Notes under the pieces: generated by a model | The model's input: the letters and a program-made list of their open reading frames with translations, nothing else | What the model was told of the DNA's origin: nothing | Databases searched by the model: none | Source: Nitrospiraceae bacterium | Lineage (GTDB): Bacteria; Nitrospirota; Thermodesulfovibrionia; UBA6902 | Length of the DNA: 64,000 bases | Assembly (NCBI GenBank): GCA_003599275.1 | Contig: QZJG01000065.1 | Coordinates: forward strand, 1,410 to 65,409 | Direction of reading: 5' to 3' | Program-made: the position numbers and the translations under genes | In this document: one piece after another, positions 12,075 through 64,000 of the stretch | Numbering within the stretch: position 1 is the stretch's first letter | Layout of the letters: each line of letters opens with the position of its first letter

Positions 12075-13208
12075 ATGCCGGGAAAAATCCCAGGTTATGG
12101 TGGGAAAAGGCCTCAGTTGAAAATAGAGGTTGACCGACTTCATCTCGACGCAGAAAACCCTCGTCTTCCTGAATCAATACAAGGACAGAAGGAAGCCACA
12201 ATTCTTCAGGAACTATTTGAAGAGTTCAATCTGGAAGAAATTTCAGACTCGATTTCTCAAAATGGCTACTTTGATGAAGAGCCGCTTGTCGCAATACCTC
12301 TTGGCCTTACCGCGAAACTTCTCCGCAAGTCTGAAAGCGAAAATTATGACGCATTCATTCATAAAAAAACGACTCAGTTTACTGTCGTCGAGGGGAATAG
12401 ACGATTAGCAACAATCAAAATACTCCTCGATAAGGGCACTCAGAACTCTTTAGGTATTCGCTCTTGGCCTGAAATCAGCAAAGAGGTTCGCGAAGATATT
12501 TCTAAATTGCCGGTTATTGTCTATCCAGAACGCAAAGAGGTAATTCCATATCTCGGTGTGCGACATATAACTGGTATAAAGAAGTGGGATGCTTATGCAA
12601 AAGCACGATATATAATTCATATGATAGAAAGTGGGCTATCAATAGAAAACATAGAACTGCGAATTGGTGATAAACAGGGATCGGGCAGGAAAAATGTTAT
12701 CTGCTATAAAATGATCAAGCAAGCCCACGAGGAATTTGATTACGATGTCAGTTTAGCGACGCAATACTTTTCGTATCTGATGTTATCAATTGGACAACTC
12801 CCTATAAGAAATTACCTGGGGATGGGAAAGCTTAAGGAAATATCATTAGATGAGCCTATACCAAATACTAAGATAGAGGAATTGAAAAACCTCTTGTCTT
12901 GGCTTTTTGGTGAAGATAAAAATAGGAAACCTGTAATAGATGATTCAAGAGAGATTACGCAATATTTAACGCATGTTGTTAAAAGCCCTGAAGCAGTGGA
13001 GTACCTGAATAAGACCCGACGATTGCAGGATGCGTATGAATTAACCGATGGTGAGGAGACAATGCTGAAGAAAACCCTATCATCTGCCGGGTTCAAGCTT
13101 GAAAAAGCTTTAGGAATTATACATAGACATAAAACTCTTGAAATAAAAGCGGAAGTCGAGAAATGCTTTGAGACGGCTAACCGGCTTCGTAAAACAATTA
13201 ATGAGTAG
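12075..13208 (+). CDS. ParB/Srx-fold (ParB-like nuclease domain) protein
   Basis: LHLDAENPR and VVEGNRRLATIKIL match the ParB N-terminal domain motifs (DPxNPR / GxRR). AT-rich context. Confidence 0.6.
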   Translation: MPGKIPGYGGKRPQLKIEVDRLHLDAENPRLPESIQGQKEATILQELFEEFNLEEISDSISQNGYFDEEPLVAIPLGLTAKLLRKSESENYDAFIHKKTTQFTVVEGNRRLATIKILLDKGTQNSLGIRSWPEISKEVREDISKLPVIVYPERKEVIPYLGVRHITGIKKWDAYAKARYIIHMIESGLSIENIELRIGDKQGSGRKNVICYKMIKQAHEEFDYDVSLATQYFSYLMLSIGQLPIRNYLGMGKLKEISLDEPIPNTKIEELKNLLSWLFGEDKNRKPVIDDSREITQYLTHVVKSPEAVEYLNKTRRLQDAYELTDGEETMLKKTLSSAGFKLEKALGIIHRHKTLEIKAEVEKCFETANRLRKTINE

Positions 13209-13210
13209 CT

Positions 13211-14068
13211 ATGATAGAGATTCCTGACGCACAATCTCACCGCGCTGTTGCCGATTGGCTTGAAATTCACCTATCAATTTTTGCTGCATCGATATCTAAG
13301 GCTGAGCTTTCTTCATATTTAGAAGGGCTGTCTGGAGACGAAAGCACCGAGGCATTCTTAAGTAGCGTTTGGAACGAATTGCTATCAAGGCAGAGTCAAT
13401 ATATGCGACCGCCTTTTATCGTATCTGAGAGGCGCATAATCAAGAATACTGCTGTAACGTATGGTGTTGAATATCTTACATGTTTGATTCTTTCTCTATA
13501 TGGTGTGAATGATCATGATATTTCCGGAAGGAGAATGCGCTCAGCTAAATTATTTGAAAGACTCTCCGGATTTGCTCTCCAAGAATATTTAGGTGGGAGA
13601 TTTTTTTTATTTGGCTGGCCTGCGTTAGATGGCACAGAGCCCGCAATTCAAGCTCGTATTCAGCAAGTTTCTACTGAATTGAACGAACGATTTGTCGAAG
13701 CACCTGCAGCGACCTATAAAGATAGGGGCGTAGATATAATTGCATGGAAGCCTTTCGCTGAAGGCAGAAGCTGCCAATGCGTCATTTTAGCGCAATGCGC
13801 TGCTGGTAAGGATTGGCGAAATAAGACGACTACTCTGCCAATGGATGCCTGGACTAAATACATACATTGGGCATCTAATCCAATCAAAGCATTTTTTGTT
13901 CCTTGTGTGATTCCTGATAATTTGTGGCTTGAAGCTTCGTGGGAAGCCGGAATCTTATTTGATCGAATCAGGATAATGAATTTATTAAATGGTGGAATTC
14001 CTGACGAACAACTCAATCAAGATCTTTTGACATGGACAACCGAGCAGCTTAGTGAGCATGAGGTATGA
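13211..14068 (+). CDS. Hypothetical protein, candidate type II restriction endonuclease partner of Dcm
   Basis: No conserved family was recognised. Its stop overlaps the Dcm start (ATGA), which implies translational coupling. There is a possible PD-(D/E)xK-like segment, KDRGVDIIAWK. Confidence 0.35.
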   Translation: MIEIPDAQSHRAVADWLEIHLSIFAASISKAELSSYLEGLSGDESTEAFLSSVWNELLSRQSQYMRPPFIVSERRIIKNTAVTYGVEYLTCLILSLYGVNDHDISGRRMRSAKLFERLSGFALQEYLGGRFFLFGWPALDGTEPAIQARIQQVSTELNERFVEAPAATYKDRGVDIIAWKPFAEGRSCQCVILAQCAAGKDWRNKTTTLPMDAWTKYIHWASNPIKAFFVPCVIPDNLWLEASWEAGILFDRIRIMNLLNGGIPDEQLNQDLLTWTTEQLSEHEV

Positions 14069-15402
14069 AATTTATTGACTTATTTGCAGGACTCGGTGGA
14101 TTTCACATTGCACTCAGGCAACTTGGGCATAGTTGTGTCTTCGCGAGTGAGTTAGACCCGCTGCTGCGTGATTTATACAACGAGAATTTCAGCATATTGC
14201 CTGCTGGTGATATTCGTACCATAAAGGTATCCGACATCCCATCACATGACATTTTGTGTGCAGGCTTCCCTTGTCAACCATACTCAAAAGCCGGAGAGCA
14301 GCAAGGCACATCATGCCCACGCTGGGGGGATCTGTTTGAGCATCACGTTATCAGAATAGTAAAAGCTCATGAGCCAAAATATGTTTTACTGGAGAATGTG
14401 CCTAACCTAGTCAGACACAATAATGGACGCACATGGGATCAGATGCAGCAAAGGCTTGCTAAGTGCGGTTATGAGGTTGCGTCCGAAATTCTATCACCCC
14501 ATCATTTTGGTATCCCACAGATTCGTGAGCGCATGTTTGTTGTTGGCAGTCGCACGGGGCTTGATAAATTTAAATGGCCCCAAAAAACAAGCGTTCAGTG
14601 CTCAATAGGCTCTATTCTTGATCTGAAGCCTCCGGATGCAAAGCCATTGTCAGCGCAGGTAACAAAATGTATGGAGGTATGGCAAGACTTTTTAGATCGC
14701 TCACCGCATGATGAGGGGCTGCCGTCTTTTCCAATCTGGACAATGGAATTTGGGGCAGACTATCCTTTCGAAGACACAACGCCATACGCCATCGGCACAA
14801 AGAGACTGCGACAATATAAAGGATCTCATGGGTTTAAACTTTCAAAGGCTGGACCAAAGCAGAGATTTGATTGCCTACCCTCTTATGCAAGGACAAAAGA
14901 GAAGCTATTCCCTGACTGGAAGATTCAGTTTATTCGACAGAACCGTGACTATTACAACAAGAATAAACGGTGGATAAAGCCGTGGCTTCCCAAAATCCTT
15001 GAATTTCCTCCGAGCTTGCAGAAGTTTGAATGGAATTGCAAAGGCGAAGAGAGGGACATATGGCAATTTATAATACAGTTTCGCGCTTCAGGAGTCAGAG
15101 TTAAACGGCCGACCACTGCTCCTTCTTTAGTAGCAATGACATCAACCCAAGTGCCAATCATTGCATGGGAGAAACGTTATATGACGCCTCGGGAATGCAG
15201 CCGCCTTCAAAACATGGAGTCTTTGCGCGACCTTCCGGGGTCACAAACAAAAGCATATAAAGCTCTTGGCAATGCCGTTAATGCTGAAGTTGTAAGGAAG
15301 ATTGTTGAATCCCTTTGTGTATCAGGACACCGATACACAGACATGATTGCTGTATCTCGACTGCAACAGATATCGCCTGTAGTTTTGATAGATAGCTTAT
15401 AA
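14065..15402 (+). CDS. dcm: DNA (cytosine-5)-methyltransferase (Dcm family)
   Basis: Motif I FAGLGGF, motif IV GFPCQPYS, motif VI ENVPNL, motif X ALGNAVN. Confidence 0.9.
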   Translation: MKFIDLFAGLGGFHIALRQLGHSCVFASELDPLLRDLYNENFSILPAGDIRTIKVSDIPSHDILCAGFPCQPYSKAGEQQGTSCPRWGDLFEHHVIRIVKAHEPKYVLLENVPNLVRHNNGRTWDQMQQRLAKCGYEVASEILSPHHFGIPQIRERMFVVGSRTGLDKFKWPQKTSVQCSIGSILDLKPPDAKPLSAQVTKCMEVWQDFLDRSPHDEGLPSFPIWTMEFGADYPFEDTTPYAIGTKRLRQYKGSHGFKLSKAGPKQRFDCLPSYARTKEKLFPDWKIQFIRQNRDYYNKNKRWIKPWLPKILEFPPSLQKFEWNCKGEERDIWQFIIQFRASGVRVKRPTTAPSLVAMTSTQVPIIAWEKRYMTPRECSRLQNMESLRDLPGSQTKAYKALGNAVNAEVVRKIVESLCVSGHRYTDMIAVSRLQQISPVVLIDSL

Positions 15403-15420
15403 CTTATAAAGGGGGCTGAC

Positions 15421-16980
15421 ATGACCGGTGGGAAACCAGTACATCGAGTTAACATTAGACCGGGTGTCAGTGTTCTTTCGGTTCTCCGACATCTAAATTA
15501 CAAGCCATGGTTCGCATTAGCAGAATTTATTGATAATGCCTTGCAAAGTTATTTTGAATCCAAAGAAAATCTTTTGAAAATTGAAGGCAACGACTTTAAG
15601 CTGCGTATAAATATTGACATTGATTCTACTGATGCCGGAAGGATTTCTGTTCGTGACAATGCGGGAGGGATAGATAAAAAAGACTTCCCACGCGCTTTTA
15701 GGCCTGCAGAGCTACCTCCTAACCGTAGCGGTTTAGGAGAATTCGGCATGGGGATGAAAAGCGCTGCTTGTTGGTTTTCTCCAATGTGGTCAGTGAGGAC
15801 GTCTGCCCTCGGTGAAAGCGACGAGAAAACTGTTGCCTTTGATATCTCAAGAATAGTGCAAGATGAGATTGAAGAGCTTGACGTGGATGCTCGACCTGCT
15901 GACAAAACAGCACATTTCACAGAAATTGTCTTATCCAGCCTTTATCATGTGCCTGCTGGCCGTACCCTTGGGAAAATCAAAGATCATCTTAGGGATATAT
16001 ATCGTGTTTTTACGCAGCAAGGGCTAATGGTTTTGAAATTTAACGGTGAGGAATTGATACACCAAGAGCCCGATATATTGATGGCGCCTTCATATCGCAA
16101 TGAGAACGGGCCAGCCATTCTCTGGCGAAAAGGCGTTGAGTTTAATTTTGGCAATGGATTGCGTGCCCACGGTTTTGCAGCAATCAGGAAAACGGCCAGC
16201 ACTTCTTTTGCAGGATTTTCCTTATTTCGTAGAAATCGTCTAATACAGGGAAGCGGTGATGAAGGTTATAGGCCTGAGACTATTTTTGGAAAACCCAACA
16301 GCTTTGTTTATCAGCGTTTATTTGGCGAGCTACATCTTGAAGGGTTTGAGGTAAGCCATACAAAAGATGGCTTACAGTGGGATGAGAATGAGGAGCCATT
16401 TTTAGAGCTTTTAAAGGAAGAGTTGTCGAAGCCCGAAATTCCCCTTTTGCAGCAAGCACGAGAATACCGCGTGCAGCCCAGACAACTCGATCTTAGGCGG
16501 GGAGCGGAAGGAGCTTTGTCGCATACTTCTGATGCTATAAAGAACTATGTGCCTCCTGTGTTTTTAGCTCTAAGCACAGAGCCCCCAGTACAAACGCCTT
16601 CTGATGATCTTTCACAGTCAAGCATAGCATCTCGAAGAATAATTGACGTTGAGCTACAGGGCAAGCCATGGCGAATCGTAATAGAGTTGTCAGATGATCC
16701 TGCCATTGGAGATTGGCTTGAGATAAACGATCAGATCGCGAAAGAGCGAGCACAGACAGGCAATACTTCGCGCCGAACTATAGGCCTTCGTCTTTCCCTG
16801 AGGCATCCTTTTATGGAGCGATTTAGTGGCGTTGACCCAGACCAGATCGAGCCACTTTTGCGCGTTGCAGCAGCACTGGGACTTGCAGAAGTGGCAGCCC
16901 GTGAAAGCGGCGTTAGATATGCTGGGACAGTGAGGCGTAATGTGAACGAGCTATTGCGAAATGCCTTATGGCGAACTTAG
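15421..16980 (+). CDS. GHKL-superfamily ATPase (HATPase_c_3 / MORC-MutL-like), Dcm-associated
   Basis: Bergerat-fold motifs EFIDNALQ (N-box), VRDNAGGI (G1), GEFGMGMKSAA (G2). Confidence 0.75.
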   Translation: MTGGKPVHRVNIRPGVSVLSVLRHLNYKPWFALAEFIDNALQSYFESKENLLKIEGNDFKLRINIDIDSTDAGRISVRDNAGGIDKKDFPRAFRPAELPPNRSGLGEFGMGMKSAACWFSPMWSVRTSALGESDEKTVAFDISRIVQDEIEELDVDARPADKTAHFTEIVLSSLYHVPAGRTLGKIKDHLRDIYRVFTQQGLMVLKFNGEELIHQEPDILMAPSYRNENGPAILWRKGVEFNFGNGLRAHGFAAIRKTASTSFAGFSLFRRNRLIQGSGDEGYRPETIFGKPNSFVYQRLFGELHLEGFEVSHTKDGLQWDENEEPFLELLKEELSKPEIPLLQQAREYRVQPRQLDLRRGAEGALSHTSDAIKNYVPPVFLALSTEPPVQTPSDDLSQSSIASRRIIDVELQGKPWRIVIELSDDPAIGDWLEINDQIAKERAQTGNTSRRTIGLRLSLRHPFMERFSGVDPDQIEPLLRVAAALGLAEVAARESGVRYAGTVRRNVNELLRNALWRT

Positions 16981-19237
16981 TTTTATAGAGCTATTTATGC
17001 CGGGGAAAAATATCCCTAACGAAGAAATAATTCAGATAGTAGGTAATGCTGATAAGGGCTTGCAGCCATGGCAGCCTGCTGTTGGTCCAGAAACAATTGA
17101 GCTCCTGCAGAGATCTCGCTTGTCCTATGAGAGCCAGCGAAGTATGCGTGACGAGGCAGTTGCTATCCTGCGGAAATGTGTTACGCCAGATGGAAGAGGA
17201 GGAGATGAGACTGGACTTGTCGTTGGATATGTCCAGAGTGGAAAGACAATGTCTTTTACGACGCTGGCGGCTCTTGCGCGAGATAATGGCTATCCTTTAG
17301 TTATTGTTATAGCAGGAACAAGCACTCCACTGACAAATCAATCGAGGGAACGGCTTAGACGGGATCTCCGATTGACTGAGCGAGATGACCGTAAGTGGCT
17401 TCACATCCACAATCCGAGAGGGCAGGAGAACGCGCGGACTCTAACAGATACGCTTACGGATTGGCGTGATCCAACAGTTCCAAATAATGAAAAAAGGACC
17501 GTGCTTATAACGGTCATGAAACATCACAGGCGTTTGGATCACCTCATCAATGCGCTACGAAATATTGATTTAAGTAATGTGCCTGTCTTGCTCATTGATG
17601 ACGAGGCGGATCAGGCTGGACTTAATAATCTAATTCGACAAGGAGATGAAAGCACAACCTATCAGCGGCTATGTACCCTGAAAGGAGGCTTACCGATTCA
17701 TAGTTTCCTGCAATACACAGCTACTCCTCAAGGCCCCTTGCTGATAAACATTATTGATGTGCTATCACCGGGCTTTGCTGCTGTTTTGACACCAGGGGCA
17801 GATTACGCTGGCGGGAGCGATTTTTTCATGGGAAATGACAGTCCCGTGAGGGATATCCCATCAAGTGAAATTCCAACGCAGATAAATCCTCTGCATGAGC
17901 CTCCTTCGAGCTTGCTTCATGCGCTTAGACTTTTCTTCCTCGGAGTAGCGGCAGGCTTGATGAGAGACGGAGGCCGGGGCAATCGATCAATGATGGTTCA
18001 TCCATCTCAACGGACTCTTGGCCATAGACGTTATCATGATTGGATTGTTGCCATACGCGATAACTGGATGGGTATTCTTCATAATTCTGATGACCCCGAC
18101 CGTATAGAGCTCATAGAGGATTTTCGCCAGGCATATAATGATCTACAAGAGACTATTCGGGGTTTGGAGCCATTTGATCAGCTTGTGTCTCGCCTATTAC
18201 ACGCCATTCGACGGACGGAATTGCATCTTGTTAACACAGCGCAAGGTAGAACTCCGCAGATCGATTGGTCAAGCGCATACTCTCACATACTTGTGGGCGG
18301 ACAGGCTATGGATCGGGGCTATACAGTCGAGGGCTTGACAGTCACTTATATGCCGAGGGGGGTTGGAGCTGGAAATGCCGATACAGTACAGCAGCGCGCC
18401 CGCTTTTTCGGGTATAAGCGTCCATATCTGGGCTTCTGCCGAGTCTTTCTTGAGCCTGCGGTATCGCAGGCATTTCACCGCTATGTTGAGCATGAGGAAG
18501 ATGTACGCCATCAACTGCTGACTCATTCCTCAACAGGCCGTCCCCTTAATGAGCTGCGGCGTGCTTTTCTTTTGACGCGATCTCTCCGCCCAACCCGGGA
18601 CAGTATTATTGATATTGATTACGTTCGAGCAAGCTTTAGCGAAGGCTGGTTTTCCCCTAAAGCCCCCCATGATTCAGCACAAGCTATTGATGCTAACAAT
18701 CTTGCCATAGAACGTTTTTTCCAGGGGATGACATTATCATCCGATGATGGGCATCCAGACAGAACAGAAACACAAAAGCATTTGGTAGCGCAAAATCAAT
18801 CACTTGACCATGTCTATGAGAAGCTGCTGACAGAGTTGAGATTCTCTCGCTTGAATGATGCACAGAATTTCTTGGGGGCATTAGTTATTCTCCGCAGATA
18901 CCTTAATGATCATCCGGCGGCAGAGTGCACTATTTACTTGATGAGCCAAGGTGATACGCGTTTTAGAACATTAAATCAGCAAGATGAGATTCCAACTCTT
19001 TTCCAGGGCGCGGCTCCCGTAAATCCTCCTGAGCGACGTGGAGAAGTTTATCCTGGTGACGGGCAAATTCGCGCAGAAGACGGAGTCTCCATCCAAGTTC
19101 ATAGACTGGATCTAAGCGAGCAGGGTAGTAAAGAAATCCAGTATCGTAATGTCCCGAATATAGCAATATATATACCGCGAGAAATGGGGGGAGATGTAAT
19201 CATACAAAACCAGGGCAGCTTAACGGAGCTGCACTAA
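16961..19237 (+). CDS. Z1-domain P-loop NTPase (Dcm-associated)
   Basis: Walker A VVGYVQSGKTMSFT and Walker-B-like VLLIDDEADQAG. The size and architecture match Z1-domain proteins that co-occur with cytosine methylases. Confidence 0.65.
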   Translation: MPYGELSFIELFMPGKNIPNEEIIQIVGNADKGLQPWQPAVGPETIELLQRSRLSYESQRSMRDEAVAILRKCVTPDGRGGDETGLVVGYVQSGKTMSFTTLAALARDNGYPLVIVIAGTSTPLTNQSRERLRRDLRLTERDDRKWLHIHNPRGQENARTLTDTLTDWRDPTVPNNEKRTVLITVMKHHRRLDHLINALRNIDLSNVPVLLIDDEADQAGLNNLIRQGDESTTYQRLCTLKGGLPIHSFLQYTATPQGPLLINIIDVLSPGFAAVLTPGADYAGGSDFFMGNDSPVRDIPSSEIPTQINPLHEPPSSLLHALRLFFLGVAAGLMRDGGRGNRSMMVHPSQRTLGHRRYHDWIVAIRDNWMGILHNSDDPDRIELIEDFRQAYNDLQETIRGLEPFDQLVSRLLHAIRRTELHLVNTAQGRTPQIDWSSAYSHILVGGQAMDRGYTVEGLTVTYMPRGVGAGNADTVQQRARFFGYKRPYLGFCRVFLEPAVSQAFHRYVEHEEDVRHQLLTHSSTGRPLNELRRAFLLTRSLRPTRDSIIDIDYVRASFSEGWFSPKAPHDSAQAIDANNLAIERFFQGMTLSSDDGHPDRTETQKHLVAQNQSLDHVYEKLLTELRFSRLNDAQNFLGALVILRRYLNDHPAAECTIYLMSQGDTRFRTLNQQDEIPTLFQGAAPVNPPERRGEVYPGDGQIRAEDGVSIQVHRLDLSEQGSKEIQYRNVPNIAIYIPREMGGDVIIQNQGSLTELH

Positions 19238-20247
19238 TGAATGAACTCGTTCTCCTGTTTAATGGCCTCCAAACACCCTCAAGTGGCTCTGATTTTCCTG
19301 AGACATTCAGTGGCATACAAATCCCCAGTCGCCCTTCATGGCATCTATGTAAAGACCGATACGGGCGTCCCGCGCTGCTGGTATCTATTCCAACTGAAGG
19401 ATCGAGAATTAATACCCCGCCAAGTATTGCTCTGGAAAATCTAAGGGTTGAGCACAATATTCAGTGTCGAATAGCTCAAGCCAAGAAACAAGGAGATATT
19501 ATTATAAGGCACTTCTCCATTCTCCAGTGCTTATCAGATGAGAGAGCGCTACATGAATATTTTCTTTTAACAATGAGTGCGATTATAAAATCGCTTCCAG
19601 AAGCATTATCTGTTGATCAATTATCTGACACAGTTGATGTATTGGCTGATTTATTTCATACGCTTCAGCAAGCTCCAAAACAGTCAGTTCAGGGTCTTTG
19701 GGCCGAGTTGTTTGTGATAGCATTCGCCCAACTCCCAGAGGTAATGCTTCAGGCGTGGCATGATAACACCGATGAGCGGTATGATTTCAGCTTGGGGGCA
19801 CAGCGCGTTGAAGTCAAAAGCTCTGGAGATAGGACACGCCGCCATCATTTTGCACTTGAGCAGGCTTATCCACCGACAGGCACTGATGTTTTGGTAGCAT
19901 CAATTCTTGTTGAGCAAGCAGCAAACGGCATGGCACTCGGTGAATTATGGGACAAGGTAAGAGAGATTGCTGGCGCAGATTCAGATTTACTGCTGAAGGT
20001 GGAAAGTATCTGCATAAATGCTCTTGGAGCATCATGGTCAACAGCAAGGTCAAAACGGTATGATCGTTATTTGGCAGAGCAATCATTGCTTTGCTTCGAT
20101 ATCCGCTCTATGCCTCGCGTCTCTGAAGATCAGCCACATGGAATAACAGATGTTCGATTTCGAGCAGACCTTTCTTTTTCAAGACCTATTGATAAGTATT
20201 CCTATCGCGGCTTGGGACCACTTTTTAATGCATGTCTTACAGGATAG
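19237..20247 (+). CDS. PD-(D/E)xK family nuclease (AIPR-like position in the Dcm/Z1 cassette)
   Basis: GLWAELFVI ... ERYDFSL ... RVEVKSS gives the E / D / ExK triad. Confidence 0.55.
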   Translation: MNELVLLFNGLQTPSSGSDFPETFSGIQIPSRPSWHLCKDRYGRPALLVSIPTEGSRINTPPSIALENLRVEHNIQCRIAQAKKQGDIIIRHFSILQCLSDERALHEYFLLTMSAIIKSLPEALSVDQLSDTVDVLADLFHTLQQAPKQSVQGLWAELFVIAFAQLPEVMLQAWHDNTDERYDFSLGAQRVEVKSSGDRTRRHHFALEQAYPPTGTDVLVASILVEQAANGMALGELWDKVREIAGADSDLLLKVESICINALGASWSTARSKRYDRYLAEQSLLCFDIRSMPRVSEDQPHGITDVRFRADLSFSRPIDKYSYRGLGPLFNACLTG

Positions 20248-20314
20248 ACTTGCTTTTGTTTTTTTTGAAAACTGATGAGCTTTTAATTATGCGTAATATG
20301 TTGGAGCATGAGAA

Positions 20315-20764
20315 ATGAGACGTAAAGCTCCAGCATACGATTTATTTAAACCGTCTTCTGAGCTGTCATCATTAATTAAGAAGCGCACCAAAAGTAAAAA
20401 TACATCCGCTGAATTAATCCTACGGCGTTACGTTTGGAAGCTTGGACTTCGATACCGAATACATGTCAAGAATCTTCCGGGCAAGCCGGATTTGGTATTA
20501 CCATCTGCGAAGGTGGTAGTATTTTGTGATGGGGATTTTTGGCATGGAAGAAATTGGGATAAGCTGAAGAAGCAATTAAGGAACAGAAAGAATTATAAGT
20601 ATTGGATTTCTAAAATTAAGTACAATATCGAAAGGGACATTTTACAGGAGAAAGAGCTTAAAGGTATGGGGTGGCGTGTTCTGCGCTTTTGGGAAACAGA
20701 TGTTTTGAAAAATCCTGAGTTTTTTGCATTGAAAATTTATGAGATCGTAAGATCAACAAAATAA
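20315..20764 (+). CDS. vsr: Very-short-patch repair endonuclease Vsr
   Basis: TSAELILRRYVWKLGLRYR...PGKPDLVLPSAKVVVFCDGDFWHG is the classic Vsr signature. Vsr is a usual companion of Dcm. Confidence 0.9.
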   Translation: MRRKAPAYDLFKPSSELSSLIKKRTKSKNTSAELILRRYVWKLGLRYRIHVKNLPGKPDLVLPSAKVVVFCDGDFWHGRNWDKLKKQLRNRKNYKYWISKIKYNIERDILQEKELKGMGWRVLRFWETDVLKNPEFFALKIYEIVRSTK

Positions 20765-36014: not shown

Positions 36015-36884
36015 ATGCAAATCATCACTGCCATAGAAGACATGCAGGCATTGAGCAGCAGGCTCTTGTCGGAGAAAAAAAACATCGGCCTGGTCCCTAC
36101 GATGGGGGCATTGCATGAAGGTCATCTGGGTCTTGTAAGGCGCTCAAAAGATGAAAACGATTTTACGGTTGTCAGCATATTTGTAAATCCGTCACAGTTC
36201 GGGCCGAATGAGGATTTCAACGAGTATCCTCGCGACACGGAAGGAGATTTGGACAAACTCTCTCCTTGCAAGGTTGACGCTGTTTTTATTCCCGGTGCTG
36301 ATGAGATGTATCCGGAAGGTTTTTCCACTTCGATCAACATCGGCAATATCGGAACAATACTTTGCGGAGCGTCAAGGCCGGGGCACTTCAACGGCGTGGC
36401 AACGGTGGTCGCAAAGCTTTTCAACATTGTCATGCCCGGCAGGGCGTATTTCGGTCAGAAGGACTTTCAGCAGACGGTTGTTATCGGGAAGTTGGTCCGT
36501 GAACTGGATTTCGGCGTTGATATTGTTGTATGCCCCACAGTCAGGGGACCCGACGGGCTTGCGATGAGTTCGAGAAACGGTTATTTGAGCGATGAAGAAA
36601 GAAAGGCGGCCCCGATTTTGTATAAAGCGCTAAAGTTCGGGGAGGAGCTTATTGTATCCAATGGTATTGTTAATGCGGTATTAATCAAAGAGGAAATGCG
36701 AAAGCTCATTCACACCGAACCGCTTGCAGCCGCCGACTACGTCGAGATCGTCACCTTGGGCCGGCTTGAGGGAGTGGAGAAAATTGAGCTGCCCGTGGCA
36801 ATATGTATTGCCGTGAAAATAGGGAAGACAAGACTGATCGATAATATTGTCGTGGAGAAAAAGCAGGTGGAGGACGTCCGTTGA
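36015..36884 (+). CDS. panC: Pantoate--beta-alanine ligase PanC
   Basis: VPTMGALHEGHLGLV (HIGH-like motif) and VSIFVNPSQFGPNEDF. Confidence 0.85.
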   Translation: MQIITAIEDMQALSSRLLSEKKNIGLVPTMGALHEGHLGLVRRSKDENDFTVVSIFVNPSQFGPNEDFNEYPRDTEGDLDKLSPCKVDAVFIPGADEMYPEGFSTSINIGNIGTILCGASRPGHFNGVATVVAKLFNIVMPGRAYFGQKDFQQTVVIGKLVRELDFGVDIVVCPTVRGPDGLAMSSRNGYLSDEERKAAPILYKALKFGEELIVSNGIVNAVLIKEEMRKLIHTEPLAAADYVEIVTLGRLEGVEKIELPVAICIAVKIGKTRLIDNIVVEKKQVEDVR

Positions 36885-37354
36885 CAGAGCGCAAAAATGA
36901 GATACTGGAGCTTGCTTCCGGATTTGTCAGTCTGGCTGAACAACAGCTTGACACCGGGCATAAGACAATTTCAAAGGAGGCGGAAGATTTCCTCCTTAAT
37001 AACGATTGGCCCGGCGGGGATAAAGAACTTGAGACCGCTGTAAAAAGGGCATGTATTATGTCGGACGGCCCGGTCCTTCAGATTGAGGATTTCGATCTGA
37101 AACAGGGGAAGGTAAAGTCCATCGGAAAATTCGTTGAAACCAGGCTGACGGGCTTTATGCGGAACATTAACCGGTTCGAAAAATTCAACCTTTACGATAT
37201 GGTCATCCCCGAGGTCGAAAAGTCTCTCATATTGATGGTATTGAAAGAGACAAAGGGAAACCAGATAAAGGCCTCAAGGCTGCTCGGCATAAACCGCAAT
37301 ACATTGCGAAGCAAGATAAGGATCCTGAAGATAAAATTAAAAGATTTGAAGTAG
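36881..37354 (+). CDS. Truncated sigma-54-activator-like protein: C-terminal end of the AAA+ domain plus Fis-type HTH only
   Basis: WPGGDKELETAVKRACIMS resembles the WPGNVRELEN tail of the sigma-54 interaction domain. HTH NQIKASRLLGINRNTLRSKIR. No Walker motifs. Confidence 0.5.
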   Translation: MTERKNEILELASGFVSLAEQQLDTGHKTISKEAEDFLLNNDWPGGDKELETAVKRACIMSDGPVLQIEDFDLKQGKVKSIGKFVETRLTGFMRNINRFEKFNLYDMVIPEVEKSLILMVLKETKGNQIKASRLLGINRNTLRSKIRILKIKLKDLK

Positions 37355-38112: not shown

Positions 38113-39219
38113 ATGAAATTTTTATCTGACGATTCACTTGATGAAGGACCGGAATCAATGGTTGCAATCGGCGATAAAAAAGTATCGCGCAGGGACTTTA
38201 TGAAGTTTTGCACTGCGATGGCTGCCGTTCTCGCCTTGCCGGAGACATTTGCGGGCACAATAGCCGAGGCCATTGAGAAGAAGCAGAGGCCGTATGTCGT
38301 GTGGCTGGAGTTCCAGGATTGCGCAGGTGATTCCGAATCAATGCTGAGGGCCAGCAAACCGACGATTTCCCAGATAGTGTTAGATGTGATTTCCCTCGAT
38401 TATCATGAGACGATTATGGCGCCCTCCGGGAAGCAGGCCGAGAAATCGCTCATGGACGTTGTAAAAAATCAGAAGGGCAAATATATTGCGATAGTCGAGG
38501 GCGCGATACCCTTGAAGGACGGAGGAGTCTACTGTTGCATCGGCGGCAGGACGGCCCTCGATATAGCAAAGGAAGTGTGCGGCAACGCCGCCTTTACAAT
38601 CAATGTAGGTTCCTGCTCCTGCTGGGGAGGCATAGCCAGCGCGAACCCCAATCCCACGGGCGCGGTAGGCGTCGGAGAGGCAGTCCCCGGAATTACTTAT
38701 GTAAATCTTCCAGGCTGCCCGATGAATGTCGAGAACGTAACGGCCACGATAGTCCATTATCTTACTTTCGGGAACCTGCCCGTACTTGACTCCCGTCATC
38801 GTCCTTACTTCGCGCATGGAAAGACAGTGCACGAGAACTGCGAACGCAGGGCGCATTATGACGCGGGGCAGTTTGTTCGCCAATGGGGAGATGAGGGACA
38901 CAGGCAGGGGTGGTGTCTCTATGAGATGGGCTGCAAGGGGCCTGTTGCTCACTTTAACTGTCCCTCTGTCAGGTGGAACGGCGCAACGAGCTGGCCTGTC
39001 CAGGGAGGACACGGCTGCATAGCCTGCGCCTCCGACCACAACTGGGACGTGGCGTATCCGTTTTACGGCAGGCTTCCCAAGGTGCCGGGATTCGGCATTG
39101 AAAGCACAGCAGACAAGATCGGCGCGGGACTTGCCGCCGCAACAGCCGCAGGTCTTTTGGTACATGGAATCGGCAGGGCAATATCGCCCAAAAAAGATAA
39201 GGAAGAGGGAGGTGAATGA
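38113..39219 (+). CDS. hyaA: [NiFe] hydrogenase small subunit (Tat-exported)
   Basis: Twin-arginine motif SRRDFMKF. Medial and distal cluster cysteines present ([45 protein letters not shown]). The proximal motif reads DCAGDSES instead of ECTGCSES. Confidence 0.85.
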
Positions 39220-40931
39220 CATTGGCAAAAATAGTTATTGACCCAATTACAAGGATCGAAGGTCATCTCAGGATTGAGGCAAAGGTGGAAAACGGGAAGG
39301 TCGTTGACGCCTGGAGCTCGAGCACGATGTTCAGGGGAATAGAGATTATCCTGAAAGGGAGGGACCCGAGAGACGCCTGGCTTTTTACGCAGCGAATATG
39401 AGGCGTCTGAACAACGGTTCACGCAACCGCCTCGGTGAGAGCGGTCGAAGACGCATTAGGCATCACAATTCCCGATAACGCAAGGATCATCAGGAACCTT
39501 ATTTCCGGCATCCAGTACGTGCAGGACCACGTTATCCATTTTTATCATCTGCACGCCCTTGACTGGGTGGACATTATAAGCGCTTTAAAGGCTGACCCTG
39601 CAAAGACGTCGGCGCTTGCGCAATCAATTTCCGACTGGCATAACTCAAGCACATCTTACTTTAAAGGCGTTCAGGACAAGTTGAAGGCATTCGTGGAAGG
39701 CGGCCAGCTTGGACTTTTTGCCAATGGCTACTGGGGACATGCTGCATACAAATTGCCTGCAGAGGCCAATCTGATGGCAGTCGCGCACTATCTCGAGGCG
39801 CTGGACTGGCAGAGAGAAGTCATAAAGATGCAGGCGCTGCTTGGCGCGAAAAACCCTCACGCTCAGACATACCTTGCCGGAGGGATGTCCATACCGATTG
39901 ATCCCAACAGTCAGAATGCGCTGAACGCAGGAAGCATCGCCTTTATGAAGAAGGTCGCGGGGGAGGCCCATGCCTTTGTCGAGAAGGTCTACATTCCCGA
40001 CCTTCTGGCGGTTGCGTCTTTCTATAAGGATTGGGCCGGTCATGGAAGCGGCGTCGGCAATTATCTCTCGTACGGACAATTCCCGAACGACAATGAGAGC
40101 AATACCGCCAACACATGGTTGCCGCGTGGCATAATCCTGAACAGGGACCTCTCAAGGGTGCATCCCGTGGACCATAGCAAGGTCACGGAATATGTCACTC
40201 ATTCATGGTATGAATATTCCGACGGCGATGAAAAGGCAAGGCATCCGTGGGAAGGCGAGACAAAGTACAAATACACAGGTCCCAAACCGCCTTATGAGTA
40301 TCTGAATACGGATGAAAAGTATTCATGGCTGAAGGCGCCGCGTTACGACGATAAAGCGATGGAGGTCGGCCCGCTTTCGAGGATGCTCGTGGCCTACGCA
40401 TCCGGACACAAGAGGGTGCAGGAGGTAGTAAACCACGTCCTTAAGACATTGGGGGTCGGTCCTGCTGCTTTATTCTCTACACTTGGAAGAGTCGGCGCGA
40501 GAGGGATCGAAACACTGGTCACGGCGGAGATGCTCCCGGTGTGGATTGACCAGCTTGCCGAAAACATGAAAAAGGGCGACCTCAAAATCCACAACGGTGA
40601 AAAGTGGGACCCGTCAACATGGCCTAAGGAAGCGCAGGGTTACGGTTTCTATGAGGCCCCGCGAGGCTCGTTAGGCCACTGGGTGAAGATCAAAGACGGC
40701 AAGATAGAAAACTACCAGTGCGTTGTTCCGGGTACATGGAACGGTTCGCCAAGAGACGCCAAAAACCAGAGGGGCCCATATGAAGAGGCCTTGATCGGGA
40801 CGCCTGTAGCAAATGCCGAACAGCCGGTCGAAATCCTCAGGACCGTCCACTCGTTTGATCCCTGCATGGCGTGCGCGGTGCACGTGCTCGATCCCGAGGG
40901 CAACGAGGTGACGAGAATAAGGGTGAAATAG
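39216..40931 (+). CDS. hyaB: [NiFe(Se)] hydrogenase large subunit with two in-frame TGA codons at the N-terminal RxCGxC motif (putative Sec-Sec)
   Basis: [49 protein letters not shown]-[TGA]-GV-[TGA][18 protein letters not shown]... continues in the same frame. C-terminal DPCMACAVH motif plus a cleavable extension. The start overlaps hyaA by 4 nt. Confidence 0.75.
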
Positions 40932-40946
40932 GAAAGGGGGTTGGAT

Positions 40947-41609
40947 ATGAAATACGAGAGGGGAAGAGTCTATACATGGGAGTTCCCGGTGAGATTTACC
41001 CACTGGATCAATTTTCTCTGCGTCCTGGCCCTTTCGGTTACCGGTTATTATGTGGGTAGACCGTTTATTCATGCCTATTCCTCAACACAGTACATAATGG
41101 GCTGGATGCGTTTCATTCACTTTGTCGCAGCTTACGCGTTCCTCATGAGCATTATCATAAGGCTGTACTGGTCGCTTGTCGGGAACAAACATGCGTGCAT
41201 CTGCGAGTGGCTGCCGTTTACGGGAGAAAAGCTCAAAAGGGTGGCGGACGACATCAAATGTTATCTGTTCCTCAGTAAATCAAGCTGCCATGTCGGGCAT
41301 ACGGCCCTTGGAGGCTTGACATATCTCCTGCTTTTTCTGGTTTTCCTCTTTGAAGTATTTTCCGGTTTCGCCCTGTATTCGGTAAATCATTCCGGGGTCA
41401 TCTGGGCGCTTTTGGGAGGATGGCTGAAAAGCATCATGGAGCTTTCGACCATAAGACTGTACCATCACCTCTTCATGTACGTGATTCTCGTATTTGCTAT
41501 GGTGCATGTTTACATCGCGTGGTTTTCCGACAGCAGGGACAAGACCGGTTTGATGGGCTCCATCTTCACCGGTTACAAGTTTATTGCTGAGAAGGACATG
41601 AAGCAGTAA
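40947..41609 (+). CDS. hyaC: Ni/Fe-hydrogenase b-type cytochrome subunit
   Basis: RFTHWINFLCVLALSVTGYYV plus four TM helices with conserved His. It immediately follows the large subunit. Confidence 0.8.
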   Translation: MKYERGRVYTWEFPVRFTHWINFLCVLALSVTGYYVGRPFIHAYSSTQYIMGWMRFIHFVAAYAFLMSIIIRLYWSLVGNKHACICEWLPFTGEKLKRVADDIKCYLFLSKSSCHVGHTALGGLTYLLLFLVFLFEVFSGFALYSVNHSGVIWALLGGWLKSIMELSTIRLYHHLFMYVILVFAMVHVYIAWFSDSRDKTGLMGSIFTGYKFIAEKDMKQ

Positions 41610-60348: not shown

Positions 60349-60848
60349 TAAGATCTGCGAAATGCATAATATGCCTTAAACCCAGGACCCTGTTTTTACT
60401 TCTTCTCTTATCGCTGCTGATTTTTTCCGCATGCAGGCTTCCAAGGATAATCGTTCTGGACGACCCGCTTGCCCCGGAGGAACATTTAAACCTGGGGGTC
60501 GCATATGAAAAAAACGGCGAGTTTGATTCAGCATTAAAAGAATATGGTCTTGCCGCTAAAAGGCTTCCCCTTGCCTTTCTTTATCTCGGCAATGTTTATT
60601 TTCAGAAGAACGAATTTGATAAGGCTGAGGAATATTACGGGAAGGCCATCACGGCGGACCCTGCAAATGCCGACGCATATAATAATCTTGCATGGCTTTA
60701 CTACACACAAAAGGACAATCTCCCGGAAGCGGAAGGTCTTGTGCTGAAGGCAATTGAACTGGCCCCCTCGAAGGATGCTGTTTACAGGGACACCCTTGAA
60801 AAGATCAGGTCTTTAAGAAAGTCCTCACCACCTGATCTTTTTCTATAA
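60345..60848 (+). CDS. TPR-repeat lipoprotein
   Basis: Lipobox LLIFSAC followed by TPR repeats (LNLGVAYEKNGEFDSALKEY..., YLGNVYFQKNEFDKAEEYY..., YNNLAWLYY). The ORF is open from 60303. Confidence 0.6.
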   Translation: MIRSAKCIICLKPRTLFLLLLLSLLIFSACRLPRIIVLDDPLAPEEHLNLGVAYEKNGEFDSALKEYGLAAKRLPLAFLYLGNVYFQKNEFDKAEEYYGKAITADPANADAYNNLAWLYYTQKDNLPEAEGLVLKAIELAPSKDAVYRDTLEKIRSLRKSSPPDLFL

Positions 60849-61412
60849 CAACCTGTAAGGATAGGCCCTTTTTGTCCACTGGCTCTCCGGGTGCTTTGCC
60901 TGAAGCTCCTCATATGCCTTTTTGAGCGCTTTGGCGTCGTGGGTATTCTTGTATAAGTTAACGCCTTTCAAATATATCGCCTCAGGGACAAAATCGCTTT
61001 TGGGGTATTCCGTCATCAGGTTGTCAAGATATACGAGCGCTTTTTCGAACTGGCCGGTGTCGAAGCCGGATTTCGCCATTCCTAAATACAACGAGGGTAT
61101 CAGCTCTTCCGGCCCCAGGAAGCCCAGCGTCCTGTGGTGCTCCGTGCCTTCGGCGTCGAGCGTAATGAGCGTAGGGGTCCACTTTATATTGAAATCATCG
61201 GCAAGCGGTTTTGCATCAAACTGGACGCGGAGCGGCACGAAGTGCTGATTGACGAACCTTATGACTTTGCTGTCGGGATGCGTAACTGCATCCATCTGCT
61301 GACAGCCGATTCAGCCCGGGTTATAAAAATCGAGCAGCACATGTTTTTTTTCTGAACGCGCCCGTGACAGCGCCCTGCTCATATCGGTTTCCCATTGGGT
61401 CCTGTTTTCCAT
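60843..61412 (-). CDS. Thioredoxin-like (Thioredoxin_7/TlpA-like) selenoprotein with UxxC redox motif
   Basis: A single frame from ATG 61410-61412 (RBS GGAGG) reads MENRTQWETDMSRALSRARSEKKHVLLDFYNPG-[TGA]-IGCQQMDAVTHPD..., so TGA (61311-61313) sits at the first Cys of the CxxC motif. A SECIS-like stem-loop follows the UGA. Confidence 0.65.
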
Positions 61413-61447: not shown

Positions 61448-61843
61448 CTACCTGGCCACGCTCGTCAGGGAACGGACATGTTCACATGCCTGCAAAACCT
61501 CTTTTTTGAATTTCTCGAAATCGATCTGCATGCCGTTGACATAGGTGCTCCATCCGGCGGTCGATTTGGCAAAATGGACCGCGTCCTCTATCTCTGCGTC
61601 GGTCGCTCCGTTTAATTTTGCCAGCTCCGTATGGTAAAACGAACAGTAGCGGCACTTGGTTGCGGCAGATATTGCGACACCGATGAGTTCCCTGTATTTA
61701 TTCGGTATCGGCCCCTCATCAAACTGTACGCGCTTAAAAAGCTGCCACTCCATCTCTAATGACGAATCCGGAAGCGGCTTGAACATGCTTGGGACCACCC
61801 CGAACATGTCTTCGATTTCCTTATAAACAGTTTCTCTTCTCAT
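61448..61843 (-). CDS. AhpD-like / carboxymuconolactone decarboxylase family protein
   Basis: TKCRYCSFYHTELAK (CxxC...H signature of AhpD/CMD). Start ATG 61841-61843 with RBS GGAGG. Co-directional with, and 36 bp upstream of, the selenoprotein gene. Confidence 0.65.
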   Translation of the reverse strand: MRRETVYKEIEDMFGVVPSMFKPLPDSSLEMEWQLFKRVQFDEGPIPNKYRELIGVAISAATKCRYCSFYHTELAKLNGATDAEIEDAVHFAKSTAGWSTYVNGMQIDFEKFKKEVLQACEHVRSLTSVAR

Positions 61844-62040
61844 AATTCCTCCTTCCTTGCATCCGGCAAATATGCCGGGAACATCCGCTGCTGCAGGCCT
61901 GTTCCCGCACAATAGTTTATTTTCTAACAATATCACCTGAAGGGAACTTTGATATGATTTAAATCATAGGATGCCCGGTCAGTCATGCAGGAGATTTTGG
62001 CAATCTGTGAAATCCTGCGATTGTAAGTTAAAATATCCGA

Positions 62041-64000
62041 ATGTCCATGCGTGAACTTATAATAGAAGGCGCGAAACAGAACAACCTGAGAAATATAAGC
62101 CTCCGGTTGCCTCACAATAAATTTATCACAATAACGGGCGTGTCAGGCTCCGGCAAGTCTTCACTTGCATTCGACACCATATTCGCCGAAGGACAGTGGA
62201 GATTTATAGAGTCCCTCTCGACCTACGCGAGGCTCTTCCTTGAAAAGCTTGACCGCCCCGACGTCGATGCGATCCGCAATATAAGGCCTGCGATCGCCCT
62301 TGAACAGCGCAATCCCGTTAAGACCTCGCGCTCGACGGTCGGCACATCCACTGAGATTTATGACTACCTCAGGCTTCTTTACGCAAAGATATCCCGGCCG
62401 CACTGTGCGAAATGCAGCCGGGTGCTGAAAGCATGGACCACATCAGCGGTGGTAAAAGAGCTTGTTGAGAAATATGCAGGAAGAAAGGCCGTAATAGTTT
62501 TTGATTCCGAAGGACCGCCGGAGAATCTCAGGCAAAGAGGGTTCAACAGGATATGGGTGAATGGTGAGATCAGGGACATTGCCTCATTCATTCCGGAACA
62601 CAGTAAGGACGTATCCGTTACTGTGCTCCTCGACAGGCTTGTTATTAAGGATGGGCCGCGTCTCTCTGATTCGATAGAGACCGCCTGGGAGAACGGTGGG
62701 AAAAGCGTGAAGGTGGAGCTGATCGGCGATTTGCCGGAAAATAATGAGCTGCTCCGGTTCAGCTCTGAATTGAGATGCCCTGATTGCGGTATTGAAATCC
62801 TGAGGCCCCAGCCTCTACTTTTCTCCTTCAACCATCCGCTCGGGGCGTGCCCTGAATGCAAAGGGTTCGGCAACACACTTGAATACTCTGAAGACTGCGT
62901 AGTCCCTGATAAAGACCTTACACTCGCAAAAGGGGCGATAGAACCCTGGAGCAAACCCGCTTACAGATGGTGGTACAGGCAGTTTGCAAAAGCCGCCAAA
63001 GCACACGGCATCAGGCTTGACGTCCCATATAACAGTCTTTCCCGCAAGGAAATAGAGCTCCTGACAAAAGGCTCGCCTGATTTTTACGGGATAGACGATT
63101 TTTTCGAAGAACTCGAAGGCAAACGGTATAAACTCCATGTCAGGGTATTCCTGAGCAGGTACAGGAAGGCCGTTACATGCGGGCATTGCGGCGGCAGCAG
63201 GCTGAGACCGGACGCACTCGCATTTACGATAGGCGGGCTTAACATTTCGCAGATGACGGAGATGTCCGTTATGCAATTGAATGATTACTTTTTGGCCCTT
63301 CCACTTACGGAATACGAACGCGAAATATCTTCCGAGATACTCAGACAGATCAATCTTAAATTGAGTTTTCTGATGCGGGTGGGTATAGGCTACCTTACCC
63401 TTAAGAGGGAAGCAAAGACGCTTTCGGGCGGCGAATCCCAGAGGATAAACCTCTCGAACCAGCTTGCGTCCCGGCTCACCGGAACGTTATATGTTCTGGA
63501 TGAGCCGACAGTCGGCCTTCATTCAAGGGACGTAAGCAGGATAGCCGACATACTCAAAGAGCTTGCGGCTGCAGGCAATACCGTTGTTGCGGTAGAGCAT
63601 GACAGGACCATAATCAATGCCTCGGACTGGATCGTCGAGCTCGGTCCCGGCGGAGGGGGCCTCGGTGGCAGGCTGCTGTTCTCCGGATGGAAAGAGGATT
63701 TCCTCAAGGCAGGTACGCTGACGGCGGATTATCTGAAAGGCGCCAGGTCAATTCCCGTGCCTAAAATCAGGAAAAAGGGAAGCGGGAAAAAATTGTCCGT
63801 GAAGGGCGCAAGGGGAAACAATCTGAAGAACGTAGACATAACTATCCCGCTTCAGACCCTCACCTGCGTAACGGGCGTCTCCGGCTCGGGGAAAAGTACT
63901 ATTGTGGAAGATACGGTTTACAAGGCGCTTGCCCGGCATTTCAAGACGGAATTTGAAGTCTCTCAGCCCTACGAAAAAATGGAGGGCGCCGAATACCTCA
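62041..64000 (+). CDS. uvrA: Excinuclease ABC subunit A (UvrA family), 3'-partial
   Basis: LRNISLRLPHNKFITITGVSGSGKSSLAFDTIFAEGQ, zinc-finger CPDCG...CPECKG, ABC signature LSGGESQR. The ORF is open to the window end. Confidence 0.85.
   Translation, partial: MSMRELIIEGAKQNNLRNISLRLPHNKFITITGVSGSGKSSLAFDTIFAEGQWRFIESLSTYARLFLEKLDRPDVDAIRNIRPAIALEQRNPVKTSRSTVGTSTEIYDYLRLLYAKISRPHCAKCSRVLKAWTTSAVVKELVEKYAGRKAVIVFDSEGPPENLRQRGFNRIWVNGEIRDIASFIPEHSKDVSVTVLLDRLVIKDGPRLSDSIETAWENGGKSVKVELIGDLPENNELLRFSSELRCPDCGIEILRPQPLLFSFNHPLGACPECKGFGNTLEYSEDCVVPDKDLTLAKGAIEPWSKPAYRWWYRQFAKAAKAHGIRLDVPYNSLSRKEIELLTKGSPDFYGIDDFFEELEGKRYKLHVRVFLSRYRKAVTCGHCGGSRLRPDALAFTIGGLNISQMTEMSVMQLNDYFLALPLTEYEREISSEILRQINLKLSFLMRVGIGYLTLKREAKTLSGGESQRINLSNQLASRLTGTLYVLDEPTVGLHSRDVSRIADILKELAAAGNTVVAVEHDRTIINASDWIVELGPGGGGLGGRLLFSGWKEDFLKAGTLTADYLKGARSIPVPKIRKKGSGKKLSVKGARGNNLKNVDITIPLQTLTCVTGVSGSGKSTIVEDTVYKALARHFKTEFEVSQPYEKMEGAEYL

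Follow-up and report, generated by a model that had tools for sequence, protein, structure and literature searches.

How is a [NiFe] hydrogenase large-subunit gene read when two in-frame UGA codons fall on two of the cysteines that hold its metal site? The question is posed by a 64,000 nt stretch of DNA, here termed the window, from a Nitrospiraceae bacterium (contig QZJG01000065.1 of assembly GCA_003599275.1); positions are those of the window. Our best reading, to which we give a probability of roughly 0.68, is that selenocysteine (Sec, U) is inserted at both codons through a single selenocysteine insertion sequence (SECIS) hairpin, a prediction made from sequence comparison. The gene and the parts of it that matter for the argument are as follows.

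39216-40931, + strand: [NiFe] hydrogenase large subunit, 571 codons from ATG 39216 to the stop at 40929-40931 (PF00374, E=7e-217)

39399-39401, + strand: first in-frame UGA, codon 62, at the first Cys of RxCGxC; terminal Ni ligand, position of Cys76 in Hyd-1

39408-39410, + strand: second in-frame UGA, codon 65, at the second Cys of RxCGxC; Ni-Fe bridging ligand, position of Cys79 in Hyd-1

40857-40883, + strand: C-terminal Ni-binding motif DPCMACAVH, with Cys codons (TGC/TGT) at 40863-40865 and 40872-40874

From ATG 39216 the frame is unbroken except for the two TGAs. The initial annotation of the window, made from its letters and open reading frames (ORFs), had held that 39216-40931 is open only with both TGAs read through, and coordinates and translation agree. 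From 39390 the DNA reads CAG CGA ATA TGA GGC GTC TGA ACA ACG GTT CAC, such that both cysteine codons of the N-terminal RxCGxCxxxH motif are TGA and the rest of the motif is intact (QRI-x-GV-x-TTVH). Residues 5-556 of the 571-aa read-through product align with solved Group 1 large subunits, those of Allochromatium vinosum (3myr, E=6.5e-219), Salmonella Hyd-5 (4c3o) and E. coli Hyd-1 among them, and in this alignment the two stops take the two Cys positions of RICGVCT; they had been placed on both N-terminal metal-ligand cysteines at the outset, and the structures put them there too. The C-terminal motif is all Cys, as first read, and beyond it lie 15 further residues, an extension such as the maturation protease cleaves off. 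Full-length homology, C-terminal motif and operon together assign the large subunit to the Group 1 membrane-bound [NiFe] hydrogenases. To ORF finders the gene appears as two pieces, one of 61 aa and one of 498 aa with its start at GTG 39435.

Are the two TGAs lesions or miscalls? A pseudogene, or an error of sequencing or assembly, would account for the 498-aa truncated ORF that gene callers report from GTG 39435, and for the window's large subunit being apparently missing from the protein database, where it has no 100% match. We looked for the same codons in relatives at two levels. A search of 5.8 billion proteins gave 120 closest clusters for comparison, 82-88% identical to the window's product; at the DNA level, bacterial contigs with one genome per species yielded 80 loci. 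TGA stands at exactly both codons in 30 other species-level genomes, independently assembled, and five more have TGC or TGT followed by TGA; the second codon is thus TGA in 35 other genomes and the first in 30, the remaining loci having Cys at both. The TGA/TGA genomes span at least four phyla: Nitrospirota (Thermodesulfovibrionales), Methylomirabilota (Methylomirabilia), Thermodesulfobacteriota and Chloroflexota, the last represented by Anaerolineae, Thermoflexus and Caldilineales. Among the 120 closest protein clusters, 76 start directly after the TGA site, with lengths of 498, 499 or 504 aa, and the remaining 44 are complete, both positions being Cys; U is annotated at the site in none of the 120.

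The TGA/TGA genes do not look decayed. One relative (L034) has a masked stretch that includes the gene end and was left out of counts of stops and C-terminal motifs; wherever sequence is complete, the 31 TGA/TGA genes, the window's included, have no further stops or frameshifts. Mean identity among these 31 is 77% over the 61 codons before the first TGA and 75% over the remainder of the gene, and the CMAC-type C-terminal motif is present in all 36 Sec-type relatives with a readable gene end. These comparisons show purifying selection acting across the two stops, with an N-terminus no less conserved than what follows it. The earlier argument that chance nonsense mutations or a pseudogene are implausible is thereby much strengthened, resting as it now does on the TGA pair in 30 other species, the lack of other stops and the conserved N-terminus. 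With the covarying hairpin and the intact operon partners described below, and with 76 clusters truncated at the same place, a lesion or miscall is scarcely credible.

If the codons are recoded, a signal should be sought downstream. There is one candidate.

39426-39445, + strand: SECIS-like hairpin ACCGCCUC-GGU-GAG(A)GCGGU, identified by single-sequence folds, covariation and the published criteria for bacterial SECIS elements (bSECIS)

The hairpin has 8 bp with one bulged base, a fold energy of -10.1 kcal/mol and a loop of GGU or GGUGA (39434-39438). The distance to the hairpin base is 24 nt from the first UGA and 15 nt from the second. A SECIS-like hairpin after the stops had been drawn in the initial annotation; folding and covariation bear out its presence, and its shape has to be redrawn, the real stem being longer and bulged. 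The published bSECIS model (PMC13188914) calls for a loop of 3-9 nt with G at position 1 or 2, a stem of 4-16 bp, a UGA-to-loop spacing of 16-37 nt and a minimum free energy of at most -7.5. For both UGAs the window's hairpin satisfies this model, with loop GGU, spacings of 23 and 32 nt and -10.1 kcal/mol.

The hairpin recurs in every TGA-bearing sequence collected. This set of 37 comprises 31 genes with TGA at both codons (UU, the window's included), five with Cys then TGA (CU) and one with TGA then Cys (UC). In all 37 the apical loop begins exactly 23 nt past the second codon and 32 nt past the first. Fold energies range from -6.6 to -11.3 kcal/mol and stems from 6 to 8 bp, with a single exception (L024, 4 + 2 bp); most lineages have CGUGA or CGUGC as the loop, and the window's subgroup has GGU(GA). 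Covariation was scored on the 36 genome-derived Sec-type sequences. Compensatory double changes occur at four of seven pairs (AU/UA/GC, GC/CG, CG/UA and UA/GC), and none of 500 shuffles reaches the observed score; 78% of cells are paired, the unpaired ones being due to the bulged register of the window's type. RNAalifold applied to the 26 sequences that share a common register recovers a 6-bp hairpin at -9.7 kcal/mol, with compensatory changes at four of six pairs and only 2 of 156 cells broken. The same columns in a control of 17 Cys-type genes are 51% paired, no better than shuffles. The initial annotation had proposed asking whether orthologs carry TGA or ordinary Cys: TGA is retained in four phyla, and the hairpin covaries only in genes of the TGA type.

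Some of the compensatory changes are non-synonymous, with Ala, Ser or Cys encoded on the 5' arm and Ala, Ser or Gly on the 3' arm. The protein itself carries a trace of the RNA. Residue 74 is the sole one that distinguishes Sec-type proteins (Val in 36 of 36) from Cys-type proteins (Ile in 37 of 46), and its codon, GUG at 39435-39437, provides the G-U of the loop; the conservation of Val74 is an RNA-level constraint. Rfam gave no match for the window (gathering search) or for either SECIS region (E<=10), as is expected given the diversity of bacterial SECIS elements. A second hairpin that might have served the first UGA, UGAAC-NACG-GUUCA, which contains the second UGA, was rejected: its pairs are set by the C/U-T-T-V-H codons, it is found in Cys-type genes too, and it shows no covariation. 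In three Cys-type loci that lie beside Sec-type clades (L030, L033 and L039), the hairpin at the SECIS site is intact in part, and may be either a pre-adaptation or a fossil SECIS element that outlived a reversion from Sec to Cys.

The same codon bears on whether the TGAs are real stops. Termination there would give a 61-residue peptide, a 498-residue protein restarted at GTG 39435 and lacking the N-terminal ligands, or both; the in-frame GTG does lie 25 nt past the second TGA and is used by gene callers. This GTG is the Val74 codon within the hairpin loop, and the called start is elsewhere in some relatives (504 aa). The product would moreover miss two of the four metal ligands, and the stretch from the TGAs to the GTG is conserved throughout as coding sequence. 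GTG 39435 is a false start of the 498-aa ORF call, which explains many 498- and 504-aa 'hydrogenase' entries in the databases, and we hold genuine termination to be very improbable.

Is UGA recoded elsewhere in the window? A second gene, at the other end of it, gives an answer.

60843-61412, - strand: thioredoxin-like/TPR selenoprotein gene (predicted), with TGA 61311-61313 in FYNPG-U-IGC and a SECIS-like hairpin at 61269-61306

The initial annotation had offered a UxxC selenoprotein candidate at 61311, and it stands: two domains (PF13098, Thioredoxin_2, and PF13899, Thioredoxin_7) span the TGA, a hairpin follows (-16.7 kcal/mol, z=-2.6), and homologs carry Cys. Most close homologs are truncated at 150 aa, one of these being 100% identical (Nitrospiraceae bacterium C4560_12995), and the full-length ones have Cys, or W, at the site. 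The UxxC thiol:disulfide interchange proteins of PF13098 figure among the catalogued selenoprotein families (PMC13188914). On these grounds the organism appears to use recoded UGA in a second, independent gene. An AhpD/CMD-family CxxC protein (61448-61936) adjoins it. Another read-through candidate, '*CGPC' at 62445 (62161-62583, - strand), has a strong hairpin and was rejected as the antisense of uvrA running off the window end; minus-strand ORFs of 191 and 153 aa in the uvrA region are likewise spurious.

Tryptophan in some of the thioredoxin-like homologs could be taken to mean that UGA has been reassigned genome-wide to a sense codon (Trp or Gly); it is evidently a product of gene calling with code 4. 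In the window TGA is the ordinary terminator of 12 of 36 well-supported genes, among them that of the small subunit immediately 5' of the large-subunit gene, and both TGAs in the latter align with invariant metal-binding Cys. We give reassignment almost no weight, less even than a lesion. Error, pseudogene and codon reassignment are, on the sequence evidence, excluded for practical purposes. Summed over the two ways of recoding weighed below and a small mixed or unlisted remainder, recoding of both UGAs is very highly probable.

How does the gene compare with known Sec-containing hydrogenases? The canonical Group 1 [NiFeSe] enzymes are those of Desulfomicrobium baculatum and Desulfovibrio vulgaris (HysAB; PDB 1cc1 and 2wpn). 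They share with the window's gene periplasmic Group 1 subunits and the replacement of a Ni-ligand Cys by Sec through UGA and an in-frame SECIS. Their single Sec takes the place of the first Cys in the C-terminal motif (DPUxxC), where it is a terminal ligand beside the proton-gate Glu, whereas the window's gene has an all-Cys C-terminus and both of its predicted Sec residues at the N-terminus, one of them bridging. Standard [NiFe] enzymes match the window's protein much better (731 bits for 3myr) than do the NiFeSe structures (about 330-340 bits), and its scores fall below the cutoffs of two models, the HysA model NF045518 (432.5 bits, cutoff 780) and NF033181 (583.9 bits, cutoff 600). By these measures it is not a member of the canonical HysA family, while following the same principle.

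A closer parallel comes from Group 4. A recent in silico study (Takano et al., Front Microbiol 2026; PMC13582414) describes N-terminal CXXU, UXXC and UXXU motifs in Group 4 only, UXXU being termed previously unrecognised; Sec variants of Groups 1 and 3 are C-terminal there, with three CXXU sequences, two of Group 1 and one of Group 3, as exceptions (Baltazar 2011, as cited in PMC13582414). The initial annotation's view that known Sec hydrogenases carry Sec at the C-terminus thus holds for the canonical DPUxxC type and fails as a general rule, N-terminal CXXU in Group 1 and UXXU in Group 4 having now been reported. The Group 4 UXXU genes resemble ours in that both cysteines of the N-terminal CXXC are UGA, in having CXXU relatives, in the intermixing of Sec and Cys types in the tree, and in a SECIS-like hairpin with G at the first or second loop position. 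Their authors likewise propose one SECIS for both UGAs, and attach a caveat about tRNA-ReC (PMC13582414). The two differ in architecture: Group 4 UXXU enzymes are cytoplasmic, multi-subunit and energy-converting, whereas the window's gene has Group 1 best matches, a cytochrome b and a small subunit with a twin-arginine translocation (Tat) signal, as expected of an exported uptake enzyme. Nitrospirota are absent from the list of Group 4 UXXU taxa, and that study has 16 UXXU sequences, the clade described here being much larger. The recoding logic and motif are those of Group 4, here found in another group of hydrogenases that has been studied far more.

Two further comparisons are relevant. A 2026 catalogue of prokaryotic selenoproteins has hydrogenases only as UxxC, with one Sec (PMC13188914). 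It also lists other bacterial UxxU selenoproteins, namely a Prx-like thiol:disulfide oxidoreductase, an FmdB-family protein and a metal-binding protein (PMC13188914); these have redox or metal-binding CxxC motifs unrelated to hydrogenases and are a precedent for decoding close UGAs, their two Sec codons being two codons apart. In the literature that we covered, from which subscription-only literature was absent, we found no report of UXXU in Group 1.

What mechanism would these observations imply? We infer Sec at both sites, a single hairpin serving both, and an order of evolutionary events. The in-CDS hairpin at 39426-39445 would act as the bacterial SECIS for both UGAs, recruiting SelB.GTP.Sec-tRNA(Sec) at UGA-62 and then, three codons on, at UGA-65. 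With its base 24 and 15 nt downstream of the two UGAs, the hairpin can remain folded for both events; judging from this geometry it would stay outside the ribosome during both and need no unwinding. In the predicted enzyme Sec62 would be the terminal nickel ligand and Sec65 the Ni-Fe bridging ligand, an assignment identical to that made for CXXU and UXXU motifs in PMC13582414. Cys550 and Cys553 would supply the remaining two ligands, to give a NiFe(Se2S2) site.

The origin would have been stepwise, from CC to CU with the acquisition of a SECIS, then from CU to UU by a single TGY-to-TGA change at the first Cys under the same hairpin, with reversions to Cys alongside. In a quick distance (neighbour-joining) tree UU is found in a large Nitrospirota clade, an Anaerolineae clade, the Methylomirabilia lineage and Caldilineales, with CU or CC as nearest neighbours. 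A pattern scan found UXXC in one gene only in the whole Joint Genome Institute (JGI) metagenome collection, with the same hairpin present. The CU genes next to UU clades and the single UXXC gene fit the order CC, CU, UU, which is probably the true one. One Chloroflexi metagenome-assembled genome (L071) has tandem large-subunit genes, a CXXU type at 3991 followed by an all-Cys type at 5819.

Several points weigh against Sec at both codons through one hairpin. When RNAalifold is given all 36 Sec-type sequences it does not recover the hairpin, only a weak 5-bp alternative at -2.1 kcal/mol; we attribute this to the coexistence of two pairing registers, that of a Nitrospirota subgroup being bulged and shifted. 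The fold z-score of the window's own hairpin is unremarkable (-0.9). E. coli SelB is known to be strict about the spacing between UGA and SECIS, a point against the service of two codons by one hairpin. Neither selA, selB, selD nor a gene for tRNA-Sec was found within the 64 kb window or in the flanks of 35 related loci, and the capacity of the genome for Sec is therefore one that we infer; a phylum-level precedent is the report of selB-selC in groundwater Nitrospirae (PMC8124441). Single Sec substitutions have also been costly where they were engineered. E. coli Hyd-1 with Sec at C76 or C79, the same two ligand positions, assembles, oxidises H2 and has a lower KM for H2, yet C76U retains 3% and C79U 13% of activity, with less O2 tolerance (Evans et al., PNAS 2021; PMC8020662). 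These Hyd-1 variants were artificial single substitutions made by UAG suppression. That both assemble with residual activity indicates that Sec is chemically tolerated at each site.

The last and most serious point concerns the identity of the amino acid. tRNA-ReC (selC*) decodes SECIS-dependent UGA as Cys (PMC13582414); were it to deliver Cys through SelB at one or both UGAs, the product would be an ordinary or half-selenium [NiFe] enzyme. Sequence alone fits this and Sec equally well, and tRNA-ReC is found in ~56% of UXXU-type Group 4 genomes as against ~2.3% of other Sec-type genomes (PMC13582414). tRNA scans showed no tRNA-Sec or tRNA-ReC, nor anything similar, in the window or the 35 loci, a small share of each genome. 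It would be hard to see what maintains two costly UGAs and a hairpin over four phyla if the outcome were Cys, without obvious benefit, when many close relatives have simply adopted TGC or TGT. We therefore rate Cys delivery as unlikely, well behind Sec and well ahead of every reading in which the UGAs are not recoded.

The large subunit sits in an operon with two partners.

38113-39219, + strand: [NiFe] hydrogenase small subunit (PF01058, PF14720; TIGR00391, 411 bits)

40941-41609, + strand: hydrogenase b-type cytochrome, HyaC-like membrane anchor (PF01292; TIGR02125, 145 bits)

Both TIGR models score above cutoff. The small subunit carries a Tat signal (SRRDFMKF) and ends in a membrane anchor, and its TGA stop overlaps the ATG of the large subunit (ATGA). 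The order small subunit, large subunit, cytochrome b is kept in Nitrospirota loci, and profiles and translations of all three genes confirm the otherwise intact operon noted initially. The three products quite probably make a working membrane-bound, periplasmic Group 1 uptake hydrogenase, as predicted from the Tat-exported small subunit, the large subunit and the cytochrome b. The proximal-cluster motif of the small subunit has Asp in place of the standard second Cys (CxGC); across the family this position is D, N or C, independent of the Sec or Cys state of the large subunit. Sec-type operons of Chloroflexota (L023, L025-L029, L077 and L079, from Anaerolineae and Thermoflexus) keep the small subunit and lack the downstream HyaC-like cytochrome b, which suggests an electron acceptor partner unlike that of the Nitrospirota version.

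Other features of the window can be noted briefly. Just 5' of the hydrogenase operon a 157-aa ORF (36881-37354, + strand) overlaps the end of panC; it has the AAA+ lid and Fis-type helix-turn-helix of a sigma-54 activator without the ATPase core, and resembles a gene remnant. At 12075-20764 lies a restriction/defence-like islet in which several ORFs lack a family match; its genes include a Dcm cytosine methylase (14065-15402), an MzaC-related Z1-domain protein (16961-19237) and a Vsr mismatch endonuclease (20315-20764).

What would the finding mean for these hydrogenases? We lean, with somewhat less assurance than for Sec insertion itself, towards an overlooked large clade of Group 1 respiratory uptake hydrogenases with a two-selenium NiFe site, one of its selenolates bridging, made with one SECIS. 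The clade would take in Nitrospirota (Thermodesulfovibrionales), Anaerolineae and other Chloroflexota, Methylomirabilota and Thermodesulfobacteriota. If true, the best-studied, crystallisable group of hydrogenases, whose members lend themselves best to purification, electrochemistry and crystallography, would have its first natural di-seleno [NiFe] site. Among natural hydrogenases, Sec has been known almost solely at one terminal, C-terminal ligand; natural Sec at the other terminal ligand and at the bridging one would reveal the role of selenium there, evolution having kept it at sites where single engineered Hyd-1 substitutions lose activity. With UGAs 23 and 32 nt from one loop, these genes would also be a clean natural system for the spacing tolerance and re-loading of SelB and SECIS, and a natural test of the reach of one bacterial SECIS.

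Of the closest database entries, some two thirds stem from truncated gene calls, and NCBI seems to treat the window's gene as a pseudogene and leave it out. It is therefore likely that hydrogenases of this kind are counted too low, or placed in the wrong class, when H2 metabolism is surveyed. TGA-type Group 1 hydrogenases are evidently common in the environment, and the view that [NiFeSe] enzymes are restricted to sulfate reducers and methanogens (PMC13188914) would need revision.

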